From NCBI RefSeq assembly GCF_056712565.1, contig NZ_CM160072.1: a stretch of DNA of 64,000 bases; one strand, 5' to 3'. The translations under genes were made by a program, and so were the position numbers. Under the pieces are notes generated by a model. That model searched no databases. It worked only from the letters and a program-made list of their open reading frames with translations, and was not told where the DNA came from. Below are positions 4,415 to 51,832 of this stretch, piece after piece. The first letter of the stretch is position 1. Every line of letters starts with the position of its first letter.

Positions 4415-5068
4415 TTAATCTGTCGCGTCTCGCCATTCGCCATTGGCAAGATTATCCAAAGAGTAATCCCCCATCGCATAGCGAATCAGTCGCAGCGTGG
4501 GGAAACCAACATGGGCGGTCATGCGGCGCACCTGGCGATTACGTCCCTCATATAAGGTGATCTTCAGCCAGCTGGTGGGAATACTTTTGCGCTCACGAAT
4601 TGGTGGATTCCGCGGCCATAACCACGCGGGTTCTTCAACCAGCTCCGCGCCTGCGGGCAGGGTAGGGCCATCATTTAAGGTTACGCCATTGCGCAAGGCT
4701 TCAAGTGCGTCTTGTGTGGGAATACCTTCCACCTGCACATAATAGATTTTTCCGGTGCGTTTACCCGGCTGGGTTAAACGCGCCTGCAACGCGCCGTTAT
4801 TGGTCAGCACCAGTAACCCTTCGCTGTCGCGGTCGAGACGACCTGCCGCATACACCCCCTGAACCGGGATGAATTCTTTTAATGTTTTGCGTCCGGCTTC
4901 ATCGGTGAACTGCGGAAGAACATCGTAGGGTTTATTGAACAGGATCACACGCGTGGGCTGGTTTTCAGGTTTACGCCTGGTAGAACGTTGCGAGCTGAAT
5001 CGCTTAACCTGGTGATTTCTAAAAGAAGTTTTTTGCATGGTATTTTCAGAGATTATGAATTGCCGCAT
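4415..5068 (-). CDS. rluE: 23S rRNA pseudouridine synthase RluE
   Basis: 217 aa ORF; RsuA/RluE family motifs ([17 protein letters not shown]); conserved position upstream of icd. Confidence 0.88.
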
Positions 5069-5239
5069 TATAGCCTAATAACGCGCATCTTTCATGACGG
5101 CAAACAATAGGGTAGTATTGACAAGCCAATTACAAATCATTAACAAAAAATTGCTCTAAAGCATCCGTATCGCAGGACGCAAACGCATATGCAACGTGGT
5201 GGTAGACGAGCAAACCAGTAGCGCTCGAAGGAGAGGTGA

Positions 5240-6490
5240 ATGGAAAGTAAAGTAGTTGTTCCGGCACAAGGCAAGAAGATCACCCTGCAAAACGGCAAAC
5301 TCAACGTTCCTGAAAATCCGATTATCCCTTACATTGAAGGTGATGGAATCGGTGTAGATGTAACCCCAGCCATGCTGAAAGTGGTCGACGCTGCAGTTGA
5401 GAAAGCCTATAAAGGCGAGCGTAAAATCTCCTGGATGGAAATTTACACCGGTGAAAAATCCACACAGGTTTATGGTCAGGACGTCTGGTTGCCTGCTGAA
5501 ACCCTTGATCTGATTCGTGAATATCGCGTTGCCATTAAAGGCCCGCTGACCACTCCGGTTGGTGGCGGTATTCGCTCTCTGAACGTTGCCCTGCGCCAGG
5601 AACTGGATCTCTACATCTGCCTGCGTCCGGTACGTTACTATCAGGGCACTCCAAGCCCGGTTAAACACCCTGAACTGACCGATATGGTTATCTTCCGTGA
5701 AAACTCGGAAGACATTTATGCGGGTATCGAATGGAAAGCAGACTCTGCCGACGCTGAGAAAGTGATTAAATTCCTGCGTGAAGAGATGGGCGTGAAGAAA
5801 ATTCGCTTCCCGGAACATTGCGGTATCGGTATTAAGCCGTGTTCGGAAGAAGGCACCAAACGTCTGGTTCGTGCAGCGATCGAATACGCAATTGCTAACG
5901 ATCGTGACTCTGTGACCCTGGTGCACAAAGGCAACATCATGAAGTTCACCGAAGGCGCGTTTAAAGACTGGGGCTACCAACTGGCGCGTGAAGAATTTGG
6001 CGGTGAACTGATCGACGGCGGCCCGTGGCTGAAAGTTAAAAACCCGAATACCGGCAAAGAGATCGTCATTAAAGACGTGATTGCTGATGCATTCCTGCAA
6101 CAGATCCTGCTGCGTCCGGCTGAATATGATGTTATCGCCTGTATGAACCTGAACGGTGACTACATTTCTGACGCCCTGGCAGCGCAGGTTGGTGGTATCG
6201 GTATCGCCCCTGGCGCAAACATCGGTGACGAATGCGCCCTGTTTGAAGCCACCCACGGTACTGCGCCGAAATATGCCGGACAGGACAAAGTAAACCCAGG
6301 CTCTATTATTCTCTCCGCTGAGATGATGCTGCGCCATATGGGTTGGACTGAAGCGGCTGACCTGATTGTTAAAGGTATGGAAGGCGCAATCAATGCCAAG
6401 ACCGTAACCTATGACTTCGAACGTCTGATGGAAGGCGCTAAACTGCTGAAATGTTCAGAGTTTGGTGACGCGATCATCAAGAATATGTAA
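5240..6490 (+). CDS. icd: Isocitrate dehydrogenase (NADP); 3' ~165 bp is the prophage-adjacent copy of the att duplication
   Basis: 416 aa [41 protein letters not shown]...; classic Icd. Confidence 0.95.
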
Positions 6491-21678: not shown

Positions 21679-22761
21679 TTAGAACTGATAAACCAGACCT
21701 ACAGCGACGATGTCGTCGGTATCAATACCAGCTGTTTTGGTAAACTTACTATCGTCAATTAAGTTGATTTTGTAATCAACAAAAGTGGACATGTTTTTAT
21801 TAAAGTAGTAAGTAGCACCGACATCGACATACTTGACTAAGTCTCGGTCACCATGAACACCAAGGTCTTTACCTTTTGACTGAAGGTAAGCAACAGATGG
21901 ACGCAGACCGAAGTCAAACTGATATTGTGCTACTGCTTCAAAGTTTTGTGCTTTGTTTGCAATATGGTTATTACCAAAAACGGTCATATTCTGAGTTTCA
22001 GAATATGTGGTAGCCAGATAGATATTGTTCGCATCATATTTCAGGCCTGCAGCCCATACTTCCGCATTTTTGCCGGAGGCATTGAATTTGCTCTTACCAT
22101 AGGCGACCTGACCGTCAGTGCGATCTGATTTAGCATAGGTTGCACCCACGCCGAATCCTTCATACTCATAAGTAGTGGAGAAACCGAAACCATCACCATT
22201 GGCTTCAGTTACGTCAGTGCGGTCATTTTTACCCTGATACTGAGCAGCAAAGTTCAGGCCATCGACCAGACCAAAGAAGTCGTTGTTACGATAAGTTGCA
22301 ACACCAGTAGTGCGACCAGTCATGAACACATCTGTTTGGGTCCAGGTATCACCACCGAATTCTGGCAGAACGTCAGTCCACGCACCGATGTCGTATGCTA
22401 CACCGTAGTTACGGCCGTAATCGATTGAGCCGTAATCACCAAATTTCAGGCCTGCAAATGCAAGACGGGTTTTGTCTTTGGAAGAACCTTGAGATTCAGC
22501 ACGGTTGCCTTTGAATTCATATTCCCACTGACCGAAACCAGTCAGTTGATCGTTGATTTGGGTTTCACCTTTGAAGCCAAGACGGGCATAAGTAGTATCA
22601 CCATCATCTGCATCATTAGAGGAGAAGTAGTGCTTGGCATTAACTTTCCCGTATAGATCCAGCTTGTTACTGTCTTTATTATAAATTTCAGCTGCCTGAG
22701 CAGACATCGCCATCAGTACTGATGCAGCTACAGCAGAAATTGCCACTGTTAATTTTTTCAT
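21679..22761 (-). CDS. nmpC: OmpC/NmpC-family outer membrane porin (prophage moron)
   Basis: Signal peptide [24 protein letters not shown]-terminal ...VGLVYQF beta-barrel terminus, porin-like body; inserted between Q and lysis genes on the opposite strand. Confidence 0.88.
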
Positions 22762-45591: not shown

Positions 45592-45643
45592 ATTTTATAA
45601 CCCAGATACGGGCGCCAGAAATGGCGCCTTTTTTATTTGTGGA

Positions 45644-47710
45644 GTGAATATGGCAGTACAGATTTCAGGCGTGCTGAAAGACGGTGCAGGAAAACCGATA
45701 CAGAACTGCACCATTCAGCTCAAAGCAAAACGTAACAGCACCACGGTTGTGGTGAACACGGTGGCCTCAGAAAATCCGGATGAAGCCGGACGTTACAGCA
45801 TGGATGTCGAGTATGGCCAGTACAGCGTTATCCTGCTGGTTGAAGGTTTTCCGCCTTCACATGCCGGGGCCATCACCGTGTATGAGGATTCTAAGCCGGG
45901 GACATTGAATGATTTTCTGGGCGCTGCAACAGAAGATGATGTTCGTCCGGAGGCACTGTATCGTTTTGAAAAGATGGTGGAAGAGGTGGCACGCAACGCT
46001 GAAGCCGCCTCTCAGAGCGCAGCGGCAGCAAAGAAATCAGAAACAGCAGCGGCATCGTCCAGGAATGCGGCGAAAACATCAGAGACGAATGCAGGTAACA
46101 GCGCGAAAGCGGCAGCTTCTTCAAAAACAGCCGCACAAAACGCAGCAACAGCGGCAGAACGTTCAGAGACAAATGCCCGTGCGTCAGAAGAAGCCTCCGC
46201 AGACAGTGAAGAGGCTTCCCGCCGTAATGCAGAGTCAGCCGCTGAAAATGCCGGAGTCGCCACCACAAAAGCGCGGGAGGCCGCAGCAGACGCAACAAAG
46301 GCCGGGCAGAAAAAGGATGAGGCTCTGTCGGCAGCGACACGGGCTGAAAAGGCGGCAGACCGCGCAGAAGTCGCAGCGGAAGTGACTGCAGAGCCCTATG
46401 CGAATATAGTGCCGCCGCTGCCTGATGTGTGGATACCGTTTAACGATTCACTGGATATGATTGCGGGTTTTTCTCCGGGCTATAAAAAAATAGCTATTGG
46501 TGACGATGTGGTTCAGGTCGCCAGTGATAAACAGGTTAATTTCAGTCGCGCATCAACGGCAACATATATCAACAAATCTGGCGAACTGAAAACGGCGGAA
46601 ATTAATGAGCCGCGATTTGAGTGTGATGGCCTGCTTATTGAGGGACAAAGAACGAACTACATGCTCAATTCGGAAAGTCCAGCCAGCTGGGGGAAGTCAT
46701 CAAACATGGATGTGCCCGAAACCGGGACAGATAGTTTTGGTTTTACTTATGGAAAGTTTGTCTGCAACGATTCTCTGGTTGGGCAAACTTCGGCTATTAA
46801 TATGGCATCAATTGCTGCAACAAAGTCAGTTGATGTCTCAGGCGATAACAAGTACGTGACAACCTCATGCCGTTTTAAAACAGAACGACAGGTAAGGTTA
46901 CGTATACGGTTTGATAAGTATGATGGTAGTGCAACAACTTTTCTTGGCGATGCGTACATTGATACGCAAACGCTTGAAATTAATATGACAGGTGGGGCTG
47001 CCGGCAGAATTACGGCACGAGTCAGGAAGGATAAGACCACAGGCTGGATTTTTGCAGAGGCAACGATTCAGGCAATTGATGGTGAGTTAAAAATAGGCTC
47101 TCAGATACAGTATTCTCCTGAGCGGGGTGGGGCAACAGTATCTGGTGACTATATTTATCTTGCCACCCCACAAGTAGAGAATGGGCCGTGTGTATCATCA
47201 TTTATTATTTCAGGAGGCAGCGCAACGACAAGAGCCAGTGATTTGGTTAGTATCCCCACCAGAAATAATCTTTATAAGTTACCATTTACTTTTTTACTTG
47301 AGATTCATAAAAACTGGGATATTGCACCAAACGCCGCACCCCGCGTGTGGGATATAGCAGCAGCCAATACCGGGCAATCAGCAATTGCAGCAATCAACAG
47401 AGGTAGTGGTAAGTTATATATGAGTCTGTCAAACCCTTCAGGCTTGTATGTTAATAGCGCAGCGACAGATGTATTTGCAGAGAAAACCACATTTGGATGT
47501 ATTGCAAAAGCTGATGGTCACTTTCATGTGGTGACAAATGGTAAAGCGGTTAATGAAGTTTATTGTGAATATAATGGTGTGACCGCTGATAAAAATATCC
47601 GATTTGGAGGGCAGACGAATACTGGAGAACGACATCTGTTTGGCCATATTCGCAATTTCCGCATATGGCATAAAGAATTAAATGACAGGCAATTAAAAGA
47701 GGTCGTATGA
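45644..47710 (+). CDS. stf: Side tail fibre protein, chimeric: lambda Stf-like N-terminus, Ala-rich linker, novel AT-rich C-terminal domain
   Basis: N-terminal ~110 aa (M)AVQISGVLKDGAGKPIQNCTIQLKAKRNSTTVVVNTVASENPDEAGRYSMDVEYGQYSVIL match lambda Stf; C-terminal ~400 aa unrelated to lambda. Confidence 0.85.
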   Translation: MNMAVQISGVLKDGAGKPIQNCTIQLKAKRNSTTVVVNTVASENPDEAGRYSMDVEYGQYSVILLVEGFPPSHAGAITVYEDSKPGTLNDFLGAATEDDVRPEALYRFEKMVEEVARNAEAASQSAAAAKKSETAAASSRNAAKTSETNAGNSAKAAASSKTAAQNAATAAERSETNARASEEASADSEEASRRNAESAAENAGVATTKAREAAADATKAGQKKDEALSAATRAEKAADRAEVAAEVTAEPYANIVPPLPDVWIPFNDSLDMIAGFSPGYKKIAIGDDVVQVASDKQVNFSRASTATYINKSGELKTAEINEPRFECDGLLIEGQRTNYMLNSESPASWGKSSNMDVPETGTDSFGFTYGKFVCNDSLVGQTSAINMASIAATKSVDVSGDNKYVTTSCRFKTERQVRLRIRFDKYDGSATTFLGDAYIDTQTLEINMTGGAAGRITARVRKDKTTGWIFAEATIQAIDGELKIGSQIQYSPERGGATVSGDYIYLATPQVENGPCVSSFIISGGSATTRASDLVSIPTRNNLYKLPFTFLLEIHKNWDIAPNAAPRVWDIAAANTGQSAIAAINRGSGKLYMSLSNPSGLYVNSAATDVFAEKTTFGCIAKADGHFHVVTNGKAVNEVYCEYNGVTADKNIRFGGQTNTGERHLFGHIRNFRIWHKELNDRQLKEVV

Positions 47711-47985
47711 AAGATTTAACTTTGAAGTTTCATGACAAACTGCAGTTTAAGGCCTTCCTGTCATCTCTTGACTGGGAGGAGGATGAAGACTTCCAGAATA
47801 AACTGTTAGTCGATGAAATTGGTTTCACCTACACAGAAACAGGGGTAACAGAAGAGGGAGAACCTGTCTGTGTCCGGAATGACGGTTATTTTGTCAACAT
47901 TCGCATTCTTGATGACTTGTTTGATGTTTCTGTATTCTCTGATTATGTCGTGGAGCTGGAAACACCGCTTCGGGAATGGAGCTGA
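47707..47985 (+). CDS. Hypothetical acidic protein following the tail fibre
   Basis: 92 aa; start overlaps stf stop; not recognisable as a Tfa-type fibre chaperone. Confidence 0.45.
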   Translation: MKDLTLKFHDKLQFKAFLSSLDWEEDEDFQNKLLVDEIGFTYTETGVTEEGEPVCVRNDGYFVNIRILDDLFDVSVFSDYVVELETPLREWS

Positions 47986-47997
47986 AAGGAGGAAATA

Positions 47998-48291
47998 ATG
48001 GATATAAGCCCCTTACTTCATGCGCTTTGTGCTGTGGCTGCGCAGATACTGGTTGGTCTTTTTACCGGAAACTGGGCTTACGGAGCGATAGCCGGTTGTA
48101 CGTTCTTCATTGCGCGTGAACATACCCAGGCAGAATATCGCTGGATTGAAATGTTCGGGCATGGCAAGCGAATGAATATGCCGTGGTGGGGCGGTTTTGA
48201 TCCGCGAGCTTGGGATGTGGCAAGCCTGATGGATTTTGCTGTGCCGGTGGTGGCGTGTCTGCTGGTCTGGCTGTTGGTTAATCGTGGGTGA
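47998..48291 (+). CDS. Hypothetical small membrane protein
   Basis: 97 aa with hydrophobic segments at both ends (LLHALCAVAAQILVGLF...AVPVVACLLVWLLV). Confidence 0.45.
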   Translation: MDISPLLHALCAVAAQILVGLFTGNWAYGAIAGCTFFIAREHTQAEYRWIEMFGHGKRMNMPWWGGFDPRAWDVASLMDFAVPVVACLLVWLLVNRG

Positions 48292-48382
48292 AAAAAGGTG
48301 AGCTGTATATGCAACGGAGGAAGAAACCCCGTTGCTGGAAGCCAGGAAAAAGTATCGGGTGTTGCTGTCCTCGGATGTTGTG

Positions 48383-49240
48383 CTAATTGGGTGATAACAG
48401 ATCCTGTGTATGGGAGTTTCCCTTTTTGCGTGCGTTGATGCTGGTAACGGCAAACGTCATGATGAACAAAACCGCGAATAAGACGACAATCGTCGGAGCT
48501 GGTGCGCTGTCGATAAAAAAGGACAACCAGACACCAGTCATTGACACTATTACCGATATGCCAGTCGCCAGTAGGAGCGCAATATGAAAGCGTTGTGTCA
48601 GGAGTACCGCAATGGCGCCAGGCGCAATGAGCAGAGAAATGGAGAGAATGATACCTACCGCTTTCAGCGTCGCCACAATGGTCAGAGAGACCATGCACAG
48701 CAGCCCATAATGCAGCCATCTCGTATGCAAACCGCTTACCTGCGCCTGTTGATAATCAAAGCTGAACAGCAAAAAATCCCGCCATTTTACGCTAATAACA
48801 AGTGTAACCAGCCCGGCAATAATCATCGTCTGGATTATATCGCCGATGGTTATCCCGAGCATGTCGCCGAAAAGAATATGGTCAAGATGTACGTCTGGTT
48901 TGACTGCAATATACAAGATCAGACCTGCGGCAAACATGCCAGAAAAAACAATCCCCATCACTGTATCTTGCTTGATTCGGCTGTTGTCTTTCAGGTATCC
49001 CGTCGCCACCGCGCAGAATACTCCGGCGACGAATGCCCCTGTAGCCAAAGGTAACCCCAGAATCCAGGCAAGCACGATTCCAGGAAAAACCGCATGACTC
49101 ATCGCGTCACCCATCAGTGCCCAACCTTTCAGGACCAGAAAGACCGACAGCAGCGCACAGGGTATGGAAACTACCAGTGAAATCAGCAGTGCGTGACTCA
49201 TAAAGGTGAACTGCAGTGGCTCCAGTAATAATGCCATCAT
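48383..49240 (-). CDS. sitD: Mn/Fe ABC transporter permease SitD
   Basis: 285 aa polytopic membrane protein of the ABC-3 permease family, last gene of a four-gene operon. Confidence 0.85.
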   Translation of the reverse strand: MMALLLEPLQFTFMSHALLISLVVSIPCALLSVFLVLKGWALMGDAMSHAVFPGIVLAWILGLPLATGAFVAGVFCAVATGYLKDNSRIKQDTVMGIVFSGMFAAGLILYIAVKPDVHLDHILFGDMLGITIGDIIQTMIIAGLVTLVISVKWRDFLLFSFDYQQAQVSGLHTRWLHYGLLCMVSLTIVATLKAVGIILSISLLIAPGAIAVLLTQRFHIALLLATGISVIVSMTGVWLSFFIDSAPAPTIVVLFAVLFIMTFAVTSINARKKGNSHTQDLLSPN

Positions 49241-50094
49241 GAGCGATCCTCCAGCGCCTTATGCGCACGCCGACGATTTGCCAAAAGCCCATGGGTGGGC
49301 GCAAAGACAAATGCTAAAAGAAACAGCAGTGTCTGCGCCACCACGATGATTCCACCTGTCGCGCCGTCCAGAAAGTAACTGACCCACGCGCCGAGGAAAC
49401 TAGTTACACTGCCAATAGTTACAGCAATCATGAGCAGGCGGGGAAAACGATCGGTTAACAACCATGCTGTTGCACCGGGAGTCACCACCAGACAGATCAC
49501 CAGAAAGGCACCAACCGTTTGCAGCGCCGCAACGGTCGAAACCGACAGCAGGGTGAAGAAGATGAGTTTTAATCTGCCCGGATGCAATCCAATAGCACGG
49601 GCGTGATTCTCGTCGAAAAAGGTCACCATAAGATCTTTCCATTTGAAAAAAAGCACGATGATCGAGAGAATGCCAATGATAGTGAGTTGCAGGATATCCG
49701 CCGGATCGATTGCCAGAATATTGCCCAGGACGATGGTCTGAATGTTCACAGATGTCGGGTTCAATGACACCATAAACAGCCCCAGGCCAAAAAAGGACGA
49801 GAAGATCAGACCGATGATGGCATCTTCTTTTAAGCGGGTGCGTTGGTTAAGAAACAGCATGCTGCCCGCAGCCAGTCCGCCGGAAAAGAAGGCTCCCAGA
49901 GAAAACGGAAGCCCCAGCATATATGCCCCCGCAACACCCGGGACAATAGAGTGCGACAACGCATCGCCAATCAGCGACCAGCCTTTTAGCATCAGATAGC
50001 ATGACAGGAAAGCGCAGAGACCGCCGACCATCGCCGAGACCCACATCGCATTGAGCATATATTCATAGCTGAAGGGTTCCAGTAGCACGTTCAT
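49237..50094 (-). CDS. sitC: Mn/Fe ABC transporter permease SitC
   Basis: 285 aa ABC-3 family permease, paralogous to SitD. Confidence 0.85.
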
Positions 50095-50918
50095 CTTTCT
50101 TCCCTCTGCACCGCTGACGGTCGATGAGCCACAAAAGGGCGTTCATCGTCAGTAATAATGCTTTCTTCCGAGCCGTTAAGTGTGACATGGCGCAGTACGC
50201 CGCTAAAAGCCAGCTCCAGGTTCTCGGCTGTAAAAGTGGTGTCTGTCGGCCCGCTTGCCAGGACGGTGCCTTTGACCATGACCGTATAATCGCAAAATGT
50301 CGTGACGGATCCGAGATTGTGTGTTGAGACAAGCATCGTTTTGCCTTCCGCGCGTAACTCCCTCAACAGGCTGATGATTTTGGCTTCGGTTTTCACATCA
50401 ACGCCGGTAAAAGGTTCATCCAGCAGGATCACATCACCCTGCTGTGCAATCGCTCTCGCCAGAAAGACGCGTTTCTTTTGTCCACCGGAAAGCTCGCCGA
50501 TTTGTCGATGGCGAAAATTCACCATATCGACACGTTCCAGCGCATCGGTGACAATCTGACGATCCCTCTTTTTGGCGATACGCAACATACCCATATGCCC
50601 ATAGCGGCCCATCATCACCACATCTTCCACCAGTACAGGAAATGACCAGTCAACATCTTCTGACTGAGGGACGTAGGCAACCAGGTTTTTCTGTAACGCC
50701 TGTCGCGTGGGAATACCCAGAACAGATATCTTTCCGCTGGTCAGACGCACAAATCCCATAATCGCTTTAAACAACGTCGATTTTCCGGAACCGTTTACCC
50801 CAACCAGAGCGGCAATAGATCCGCCTGGTACTGTGAAGGATGCATCGCGCAGTGCTGTGTGCCCGTTACGCCAGGTGACAGTAACATCATTAACGACAAT
50901 GCCTGCAGATTGCATCAT
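50091..50918 (-). CDS. sitB: Mn/Fe ABC transporter ATP-binding protein SitB
   Basis: 275 aa; Walker [13 protein letters not shown] signature LSGGQKKR, Walker B ILLDEP. Confidence 0.9.
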
Positions 50919-51832
50919 TATTTCTCCCTTTTCCCAGCTTTAATTCCCTGTACCAGCGTACTGGTAGTAACCTTAAGAAGGTCGATATACGTCGGTACCG
51001 GGCCGTTTTCTGTGCTCAGGGAATCGACATAGAGCACACCGCCGTAGTGTGCGCCGGTTTCACGCGCAACCTGACGCGCTGGTTTATCGGAAATCGTACT
51101 CTCGCTAAAGACTGCCGGGATATGATTTTTCTTAACTATATCAACAACCTTACGTACCTGCTGCGGTGTTCCTTGTTGATCGGCATTAATCGGCCACAGA
51201 TAAAGCTCTTTTAGCCCCAAATCGCGTGCGAGATAAGAAAAAGCCCCTTCACTGGTGACCATCCATCGCTGATTCTCAGGGAGTTCCGTAATCTGCTTAC
51301 GCAGGGGGGCAAGGGTTTGGGTAATCTTGGCTTTATAAGTATCGGCATTGCGTTGGTAGGTTTGTGCATTTGCCGGATCGTATTTTATCAACGCATCACG
51401 AATATTATCGACGTAAATCAGAGCATTATCTGGCGACATCCATGCATGGGGGTTAGGTTTGCCCTCATAGGGTCCTTCGGTGATCCCTACAGGCGTCACA
51501 CCCGAAGAGACAATTACTTCTGGAACCCCATTGAGATGCTGGTAAAAGCGTTGGAACCACAATTCCAGATTCATACCATTGGCGAGAATCAGTTGTGCCC
51601 CCTGCGCACGTTTAATATCGCCAGGGGTAGGCTGATACTCATGAATTTCTGCACCAGGCTTGGTTATGGATGAGACTTCTGCAGCATCTCCCGCCACGTT
51701 TTTGGCCATATCCGCGATGATGGTAAATGTTGTAATGACCTTGAATTTTTCAGTTGCACTTGCCTGAAATGCGATCGAGCAGGTGAGTGCGAGGCCCCCC
51801 AAGAGCATGGTTACTTTTTTTATCGAGTGCAT
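50918..51832 (-). CDS. sitA: Periplasmic Mn/Fe-binding protein SitA
   Basis: 304 aa with signal peptide; cluster 9 (TroA/ZnuA-like) solute-binding protein. Confidence 0.88.

Follow-up and report, generated by a model that had tools for sequence, protein, structure and literature searches.

The window analysed here, a 64,000-nucleotide stretch of DNA (contig NZ_CM160072.1 of NCBI RefSeq assembly GCF_056712565.1), carries on its plus strand, at 45650..47710, a side tail fibre gene, stf. In the account that best explains this locus, to which as a whole we would give a probability of about 70%, the gene encodes the Stf of a phage-21-type lambdoid prophage and is, as such, known and common. The coding sequence is 100% identical to CPT_21_22 of phage 21, and nucleotide identity to Escherichia phage 21 (OL657228.1) remains 100% across 45644-48300, an interval that also takes in the two small genes behind stf, here called p92 and p97. 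The phage 21 record labels the same gene "side tail fiber" (CPT_21_22, UMO75437.1), the gene having already been sequenced and annotated in that phage (PMC9119081). Over the same interval phage ev017 is also 100% identical, and phages PhiR63_2, PhiR57_1 and Perceval are 98.6-99.9% identical. Identity to phage 21 is 99.2% over 26000-50900, counting from the phage 21 left end, and the whole morphogenesis arm is at least 99.2% identical to phage 21 and to the inducible phages ev017 and PhiR57_1. When complete E. coli genomes were searched, 449 of 5,426 covered at least 80% of the 45644-48300 query, many of them at 100%; thus about 8% of complete E. coli genomes, including those of the type strain ATCC 11775 and of NU14, carry the stf allele.

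The gene lies in an uninterrupted plus-strand open reading frame (ORF) at 45644..47710, of 688 amino acids if counted from the GTG at 45644. This GTG overlaps the Shine-Dalgarno sequence GGAG (45641-45644) in the region upstream of the ORF, tGGAGtgaatATG, and translation likely starts two codons further on, at the ATG at 45650, to give a protein of 686 amino acids beginning MAVQISG. The ATG was preferred because it agrees with the phage 21 annotation, with lambda Stf (MAVKISG...) and with the dominant 686-residue protein cluster, which holds 2,232 member sequences. At one locus with DNA identical to the window (L002, 5007-7067; NZ_CP031256.1), RefSeq/PGAP splits the intact stf in two, an N-terminal "pseudogene" and a 417-residue "phage head spike fiber domain-containing protein"; this split is an annotation artefact and there is no real frameshift.

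By homology, the N-terminal ~95 residues are a lambda-type collar domain of the kind that fixes the fibre to the tail. The tail genes run in the order M, L, K, I, J and then stf, with M-J being lambda-like. The collar or anchor domain (ORF residues 3-96; 45650..45931, plus strand) matches the 94-residue "tail fiber protein" chain of PDB 9E7M/9MGH (chain Ta in 9E7M) at 83 of 94 residues (88%; E 1.4e-49, phmmer). That chain is the gpStfN of Ur-lambda, which assembles as 12 copies into a collar where gpV meets gpM, and this dodecameric collar bears four trimeric fibres (PMC12617516). PF08400 spans residues 3-133 (E 9.8e-69), residues 3-160 align with residues 1-158 of lambda orf-401 at 74% identity (E 1.6e-75), and at the DNA level 45633-45999 is 85% identical to lambda.

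Beyond the collar, periodicity marks residues ~105-255 (45956..46408, plus strand) as a predicted heptad coiled-coil shaft, not a disordered linker. Residues 111-260 are rich in Ala (34%), Glu (13%) and Ser (11%), and the core-type residues of the shaft give a spectral peak at a period of 3.51, a height that was reached by 0 of 500 shuffles. Autocorrelation maxima fall at 7, 14 and 21 residues, and there are one Pro and three Gly in the 152 residues. Local identity to the longer equivalent segment of lambda Stf, in which the proximal coiled coil comprises residues 102-393 (PMC12617516), is 53%, and in sequence the segment looks like the trimeric coiled coil of a lambda-type Stf.

The remainder of the protein, residues ~256-688 (hereafter the tip), is modelled as a pair of ConA-like (lectin-fold) beta-sandwiches preceded by a conserved neck. 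The neck (PLPDVWIPFNDSL) and the first sandwich, D1, take up residues ~256-535 (46409..47248, plus strand), as placed by NF048003, 6TB9_F3 and the AlphaFold2 model; the second, D2, is LamG/ConA-like, occupies residues ~536-688 (47249..47707, plus strand) and is the most variable part of the fibre. The AlphaFold2 model of the tip, from a 53-sequence alignment, had a pLDDT of 94.2 and a pTM of 0.90 and was nearly all beta, with the beta-sandwich jelly-roll fold of the ConA-like lectin/LamG superfamily. NCBIfam NF048003 ("GTA_spike_fiber") matched residues 331-531 with 55.3 bits, above its cut-off of 36, and Pfam Laminin_G_3 matched residues 562-683 (E 1.4e-4). The fold search also supported a lectin-like character, its top matches including CBM40 sialic-acid-binding modules and domain 4 of the arabinanase AbnA. 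As judged by alignment of residues 299-545 with Rcc01080 (6TB9_F3; E 1.4e-9, phmmer), the tip is homologous to the capsule-binding head spike fibre of RcGTA. 6TB9 was absent from the fold search results; in the RcGTA fibre structure only residues 2-10 are resolved and the lectin part is not (PMC10218006), and the link between tip and RcGTA is therefore a sequence-based one.

An original prediction, made from the letters of the window, had described the ORF as a chimeric side tail fibre with ~110 lambda-like N-terminal residues, a low-complexity linker and an AT-rich, lectin-like C-terminal domain unrelated to lambda. The ORF is real, and the lambda match proved longer than claimed, reaching residue 160. 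The protein is indeed a mosaic, a lambda-type anchor being joined to a tip for which no similarity was found when residues 256-688 were compared with lambda orf-314; the full-length alignment with lambda Stf that would have spoken against the prediction was thus looked for and not found against orf-314. The G+C content of 0.43 over residues 261-688 (0.51 over residues 1-110 and 0.59 over 111-260) agrees with the AT-rich description, as Laminin_G_3 and the fold search do with a lectin-like tip. Of the linker only the Ala/Ser/Glu-rich composition held, since its 3.5-residue periodicity is that of a coiled-coil shaft as in Ur-lambda Stf.

Tip, p92 and p97 together form a mobile cassette (46409..48293, plus strand) that lambdoid and P2-like phages have exchanged with one another, the junctions being conserved. 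In a P2-like prophage (L006), positions 4487-6371 match 46409-48293 of the window over 1,885 bp, ungapped and with 87.6% nucleotide identity, and the match spans exactly the tip, the 92-residue ORF and the 97-residue ORF. The fibre of that prophage has a P2-type PF12571 N-terminus, and a 74-residue Caudo_TAP remnant lies downstream. In the window, 20 codons of the 3' end of tfa persist without a start at 48311..48370 (plus strand), being 93% identical over 58 bp to lambda 22437-22494 by blastn and 80% identical to amino acids 156-175 of lambda Tfa by tblastn. Since a tfa remnant remains downstream in both the window and L006, the tip cassette displaced a gp37-like tip and tfa in both lineages; equivalent remnants lie downstream in ev243 and 2G7b as well. 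The relic at 48311-48370 is the right-hand scar of the module replacement. Between the window and L006 the tip copies have a dS of 0.39, and dN/dS between cassette copies ranges from 0.17 to 0.32 over the three genes (tip 0.18, p92 0.32, p97 0.17).

These results bear on three further claims of the prediction, that no Tfa chaperone follows the fibre, that its receptor specificity was recently swapped and that the tip is novel. There is no intact Tfa in the window, where tblastn with lambda Tfa found nothing Tfa-like besides the relic, and neither of the two downstream ORFs has Pfam or Tfa similarity; "no chaperone" needs qualifying, as p92 stands in the place of Tfa. A module swap did occur, given the cassette in common with a P2-like prophage and the tfa remnants in both, but a recent date for it is not supported, given the dS value and the presence of the allele in phage 21, which was isolated in the 1950s. 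Novelty has to be given up in view of the 100% identity to the phage 21 gene, the 449 E. coli genomes, the NCBIfam domain, a PHROG family (PHROG 1419) and the 228 phage records in which the tip was found, near full length in 209.

These records include lambdoid, T1-like, Dhillonvirus, Queuovirinae, T5-like and rV5-like coliphages, with weak matches also in Aeromonas, Synechococcus and Rhodobacter phages, and the tip also occurs on P2-type (PF12571) and PF03406-type N-termini. In protein clusters, 2,597 at the 90% identity level matched the tip at E <= 1e-5 and 2,894 at the 50% level at E <= 1e-3, 72 of the latter at E <= 1e-30; among the full-length matches listed, the tip is always C-terminal, in proteins of about 420-1,480 amino acids. 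Across 53 homologues, conservation is seen in the neck (residues 256-270), at the beginning of D1 (301-345), where D1 meets D2 (511-540) and in the C-terminal strand (661-688), and residues 346-510 and 571-660 are highly variable. Such a conserved framework with hypervariable stretches is what one would expect a specificity domain to show. Recombination junctions coincide with the conserved stretches: in 2G7b and locus L019 D1 is about 90% identical to the window copy and D2 only 42%, and in Lambda_2E9 both D1 and D2 have been exchanged. The gene is a clean natural example of fibre recombination points, which lie at the neck motif, at the D1/D2 linker and at the C-terminal motif beside the start of p92. 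Anyone wishing to give lambda- or P2-based particles a new host range could make use of these points and of the travelling of p92 with the tip.

The gene p92 (47707..47985, plus strand; PHROG 1361) encodes an acidic protein of 92 amino acids. Its ATG overlaps the stf stop codon (ATGA) and is preceded by an AAGAGG-like Shine-Dalgarno sequence, and it is translationally coupled to stf. No match was found for p92 in Pfam, NCBIfam or PADLOC, nor any fold relative in the PDB; it has no PF02413 (Caudo_TAP) match and no similarity to lambda Tfa, and its database homologues are all labelled "hypothetical". In the gene order this conserved protein takes Tfa's place. In 14 of 14 loci examined p92 follows the tip, at tip identities from 100% down to 36%. 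Homologues were found by tblastn in 145 phage records, and all 40 listed matches overlap a fibre gene or sit in an unannotated record, save one weak match (29%). Profile comparison adds the rV5-like phages (EmilHeitz, probability 98.6%) and SP15 (98.5%) to the family, the rV5-type variant accounting for about 35 further records. From its position and conservation, p92 would be a dedicated accessory of the tip, acting in its assembly or as a small structural partner; a Tfa-type chaperone would not be needed by a lectin-fold tip that is carried on a coiled coil. Tight co-variation of p92 with D2, as of an allele-specific chaperone, was also considered. L019 and 2G7b looked consistent with it (D2 42%, p92 53%), and it was rejected on Lambda_2E9, in which D1/D2 are 40% identical yet p92 is 92% identical.

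A broader proposal, which we put forward tentatively and hold to be somewhat doubtful, is that p92 represents a new class of fibre accessory protein for double-lectin tips and that p97 might be a lysogen-expressed membrane protein, possibly one with a part in superinfection exclusion. As a member of such a class, p92 could replace Tfa in fibre assembly, or remain on the tip as a small adaptor or cap which in many phages assists in mounting an exchangeable distal receptor-binding protein. If this were true, stf-p92-p97 of phage 21 would be the minimal version of that system.

With regard to function, by analogy with lambda Stf and the T5 L-shaped fibres the fibre most likely gives fast reversible adsorption, a role generally ascribed, though largely without tests, to the lateral fibres of siphoviruses (PMC12617516, PMC8594841). 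Its ligand is most likely a variable surface polysaccharide, to which the lectin fold and the RcGTA homology point. The fibre would speed adsorption by binding reversibly to a variable glycan of the cell surface, be it O-antigen, capsule or some other polysaccharide, and this would precede the irreversible binding of J to LamB, the terminal receptor of phage 21 (PMC11336670). Like lambda Stf, it would be dispensable on rough laboratory hosts. An insertion sequence lies near codon 645 of stf in phages 1W (L004, 4431-6931), 3W, 4A7 and Lambda_4C10, and IS3/ISEc52 lies within the matched region in two E. coli chromosomes (hits H1 and H2). Given such interrupted copies in phage records and genomes, the fibre appears dispensable for plaque formation, which fits an accessory role.

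Several points weigh against this account. A literature search gave no determined receptor for this type of fibre in any phage and no work on the phage 21 side fibre. Glycan binding is argued from the fold and from one distant homologue, RcGTA Rcc01080, the lectin part of which was not resolved by cryo-EM; among fibres with the NF048003 domain, Rcc01080 is the only one known to bind capsular or extracellular polysaccharide (PMC10218006). ConA-like folds can also bind proteins. p92 co-varies with neither D1 nor D2, and the 92% identity of p92 beside a 40% tip in Lambda_2E9 argues against a tight allele-specific fit of chaperone and client. Finally, most non-temperate relatives carry a second, distal fibre gene after p92, so that the tip could be mainly a docking platform.

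Taken to its end, this last point makes the lectin-tipped protein the proximal half of a branched fibre, with the tip, with or without p92, as a docking hub, and with the distal gene lost in phage 21 and in the window prophage, leaving the fibre little or no receptor specificity of its own. A fibre gene does follow p92 in IrisVonRoten, EC100, SP15, JenP1, tonn, KarlJaspers and the lambdoid 2G7b, where the order stf-p92-distal fibre-p97 is that of phage 21 plus one gene. These post-p92 fibre genes share the N-terminal motif M-[AVT]-T-x-T-x-IP-x-DI-x-x-LK, which is probably a docking peptide for branched fibres; motif-bearing distal fibre or spike genes begin at 5289 in L020, 3289 in L022, 3292 in L023, 3292 in L024, 3289 in L026, 4565 in L028 and 4087 in L029. 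The T-shaped fibre Gp24 of IrisVonRoten is predicted to attach to the proximal fibre (PMC11990801), and branched fibres are established for DT57C LtfA/LtfB (PMC4728585), although in that phage the shaft, and not the tip, is regarded as the docking site of the distal fibre (PMC4728585). The docking motif is, however, absent from all six frames of the window, and stf-p92-p97 occurs without a distal fibre in four lineages (phage 21, ev243, Lambda_2E9 and P2-like) with all three genes under purifying selection. The hypervariable stretches of D1 and D2, moreover, are easier to reconcile with a tip that recognises a ligand directly than with one that serves as a constant docking site, and we regard loss of a distal fibre as an unlikely explanation of this locus.

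Lambda Stf binds OmpC, and an outer-membrane protein could likewise be the ligand of the tip in place of a glycan, but this is quite improbable in our view. Of the sequence homologues for which there are data, the nearest binds capsular polysaccharide (PMC10218006); the top fold matches include the CBM40 modules and AbnA domain 4 mentioned above; and the tip alleles of coliphages are extremely diverse, in parallel with O-antigen and capsule (PMC8594841). That the C-terminal module might be an enzyme, a ConA-fold glycoside hydrolase or lyase degrading surface polysaccharide, was considered and rejected as very improbable. ORF208 of GSP004, which also came up, is a P22-type tailspike and irrelevant to this fibre.

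The third gene of the cassette, p97 (47998..48291, plus strand; PHROG 1443), has a strong Shine-Dalgarno sequence (AGGAGG) and encodes a predicted membrane protein of 97 residues, for which two transmembrane segments are predicted in the phage 21 record and no family was found in Pfam, NCBIfam or PADLOC. Among the loci examined it is carried only by temperate phages, and in 2G7b it is placed after the distal fibre gene. It is 93-100% identical among lambdoid phages and 79% in the P2-like copy, while the tip falls to 40-57%. p97 is probably a moron and not a part of the virion or fibre; its position and conservation suggest a membrane protein that would be expressed in the lysogen. It is far more conserved than the adjacent fibre. 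A role in lysogenic conversion or in exclusion is possible.

On the left, a terminator-like hairpin with a T-run lies between J and stf (45610..45638, plus strand; found by pattern scan and annotated as a terminator in phage 21). It is all that 45592-45649 contains: unlike lambda, ev243 and 2G7b, the window has no lom between J and stf. On the right, directly after the fibre cassette and inside the prophage, the sitDCBA operon for an iron/manganese ABC transporter occupies 48383-51832 on the minus strand. It belongs to the phage 21 genome, and sitDCBA is known as a moron that intestinal lambdoid phages commonly carry (PMC6969025).

The locus is a textbook case of tail-fibre mosaicism in an already sequenced phage, and little rests on it; the ligand of the stf tip and the function of the p92 family are the only under-explored items at an otherwise known locus.

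Among known systems the closest is phage 21 CPT_21_22 itself, with the same J upstream, sitDCBA downstream and no sequence difference; the window holds a prophage copy of it in an E. coli chromosome. Ur-lambda Stf with Tfa has the same collar domain (88% over 94 amino acids), a shaft of like composition and the same position after J, and is an accessory fibre that speeds adsorption, to which the window fibre is likened. It differs in its longer shaft, in the presence of a hinge and in its distal tip, which is gp37-like, binds OmpC and requires Tfa. The window fibre lacks this gp37-like, Tfa-assembled tip of a lambda-type Stf and has a double ConA-like sandwich in its stead, with Tfa reduced to a 20-codon relic and lom absent. 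The head spike fibre of RcGTA, Rcc01080, which binds Rhodobacter cells in a capsule-dependent manner (PMC10218006), is homologous over Stf residues 299-545, the NF048003 cut-off being passed; identity is low and the alignment stops before D2. Unlike Stf, it sits on capsid vertices through a 10-residue N-terminal peptide and is without collar or coiled coil.

The proximal lateral fibre Gp22 of IrisVonRoten (Bas32, T5-like) is 46% identical to Stf over 589 amino acids, comprising the end of the shaft, the neck, D1 and D2, and is likewise coupled to a p92 homologue downstream; its C-terminus has been described as galectin-like and as a possible additional receptor-binding domain (PMC11990801). 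It differs from Stf in its T5-type N-terminal anchor, in the distal T-shaped fibre gene after p92 and in the lack of p97. Gp22-type tips are also found in T1-like, Dhillonvirus, Queuovirinae and rV5-like phages. The branched, L-shaped fibres LtfA/LtfB of DT57C, from the same locus in T5-like phages, offer a parallel in concept, a proximal fibre on which a second receptor-binding protein is mounted by means of a conserved N-terminal peptide (PMC4728585). LtfA and LtfB each terminate in a self-cleaving S74 chaperone domain and not in lectin sandwiches, with no p92-type gene described, and the window, unlike DT57C, has no distal fibre gene.

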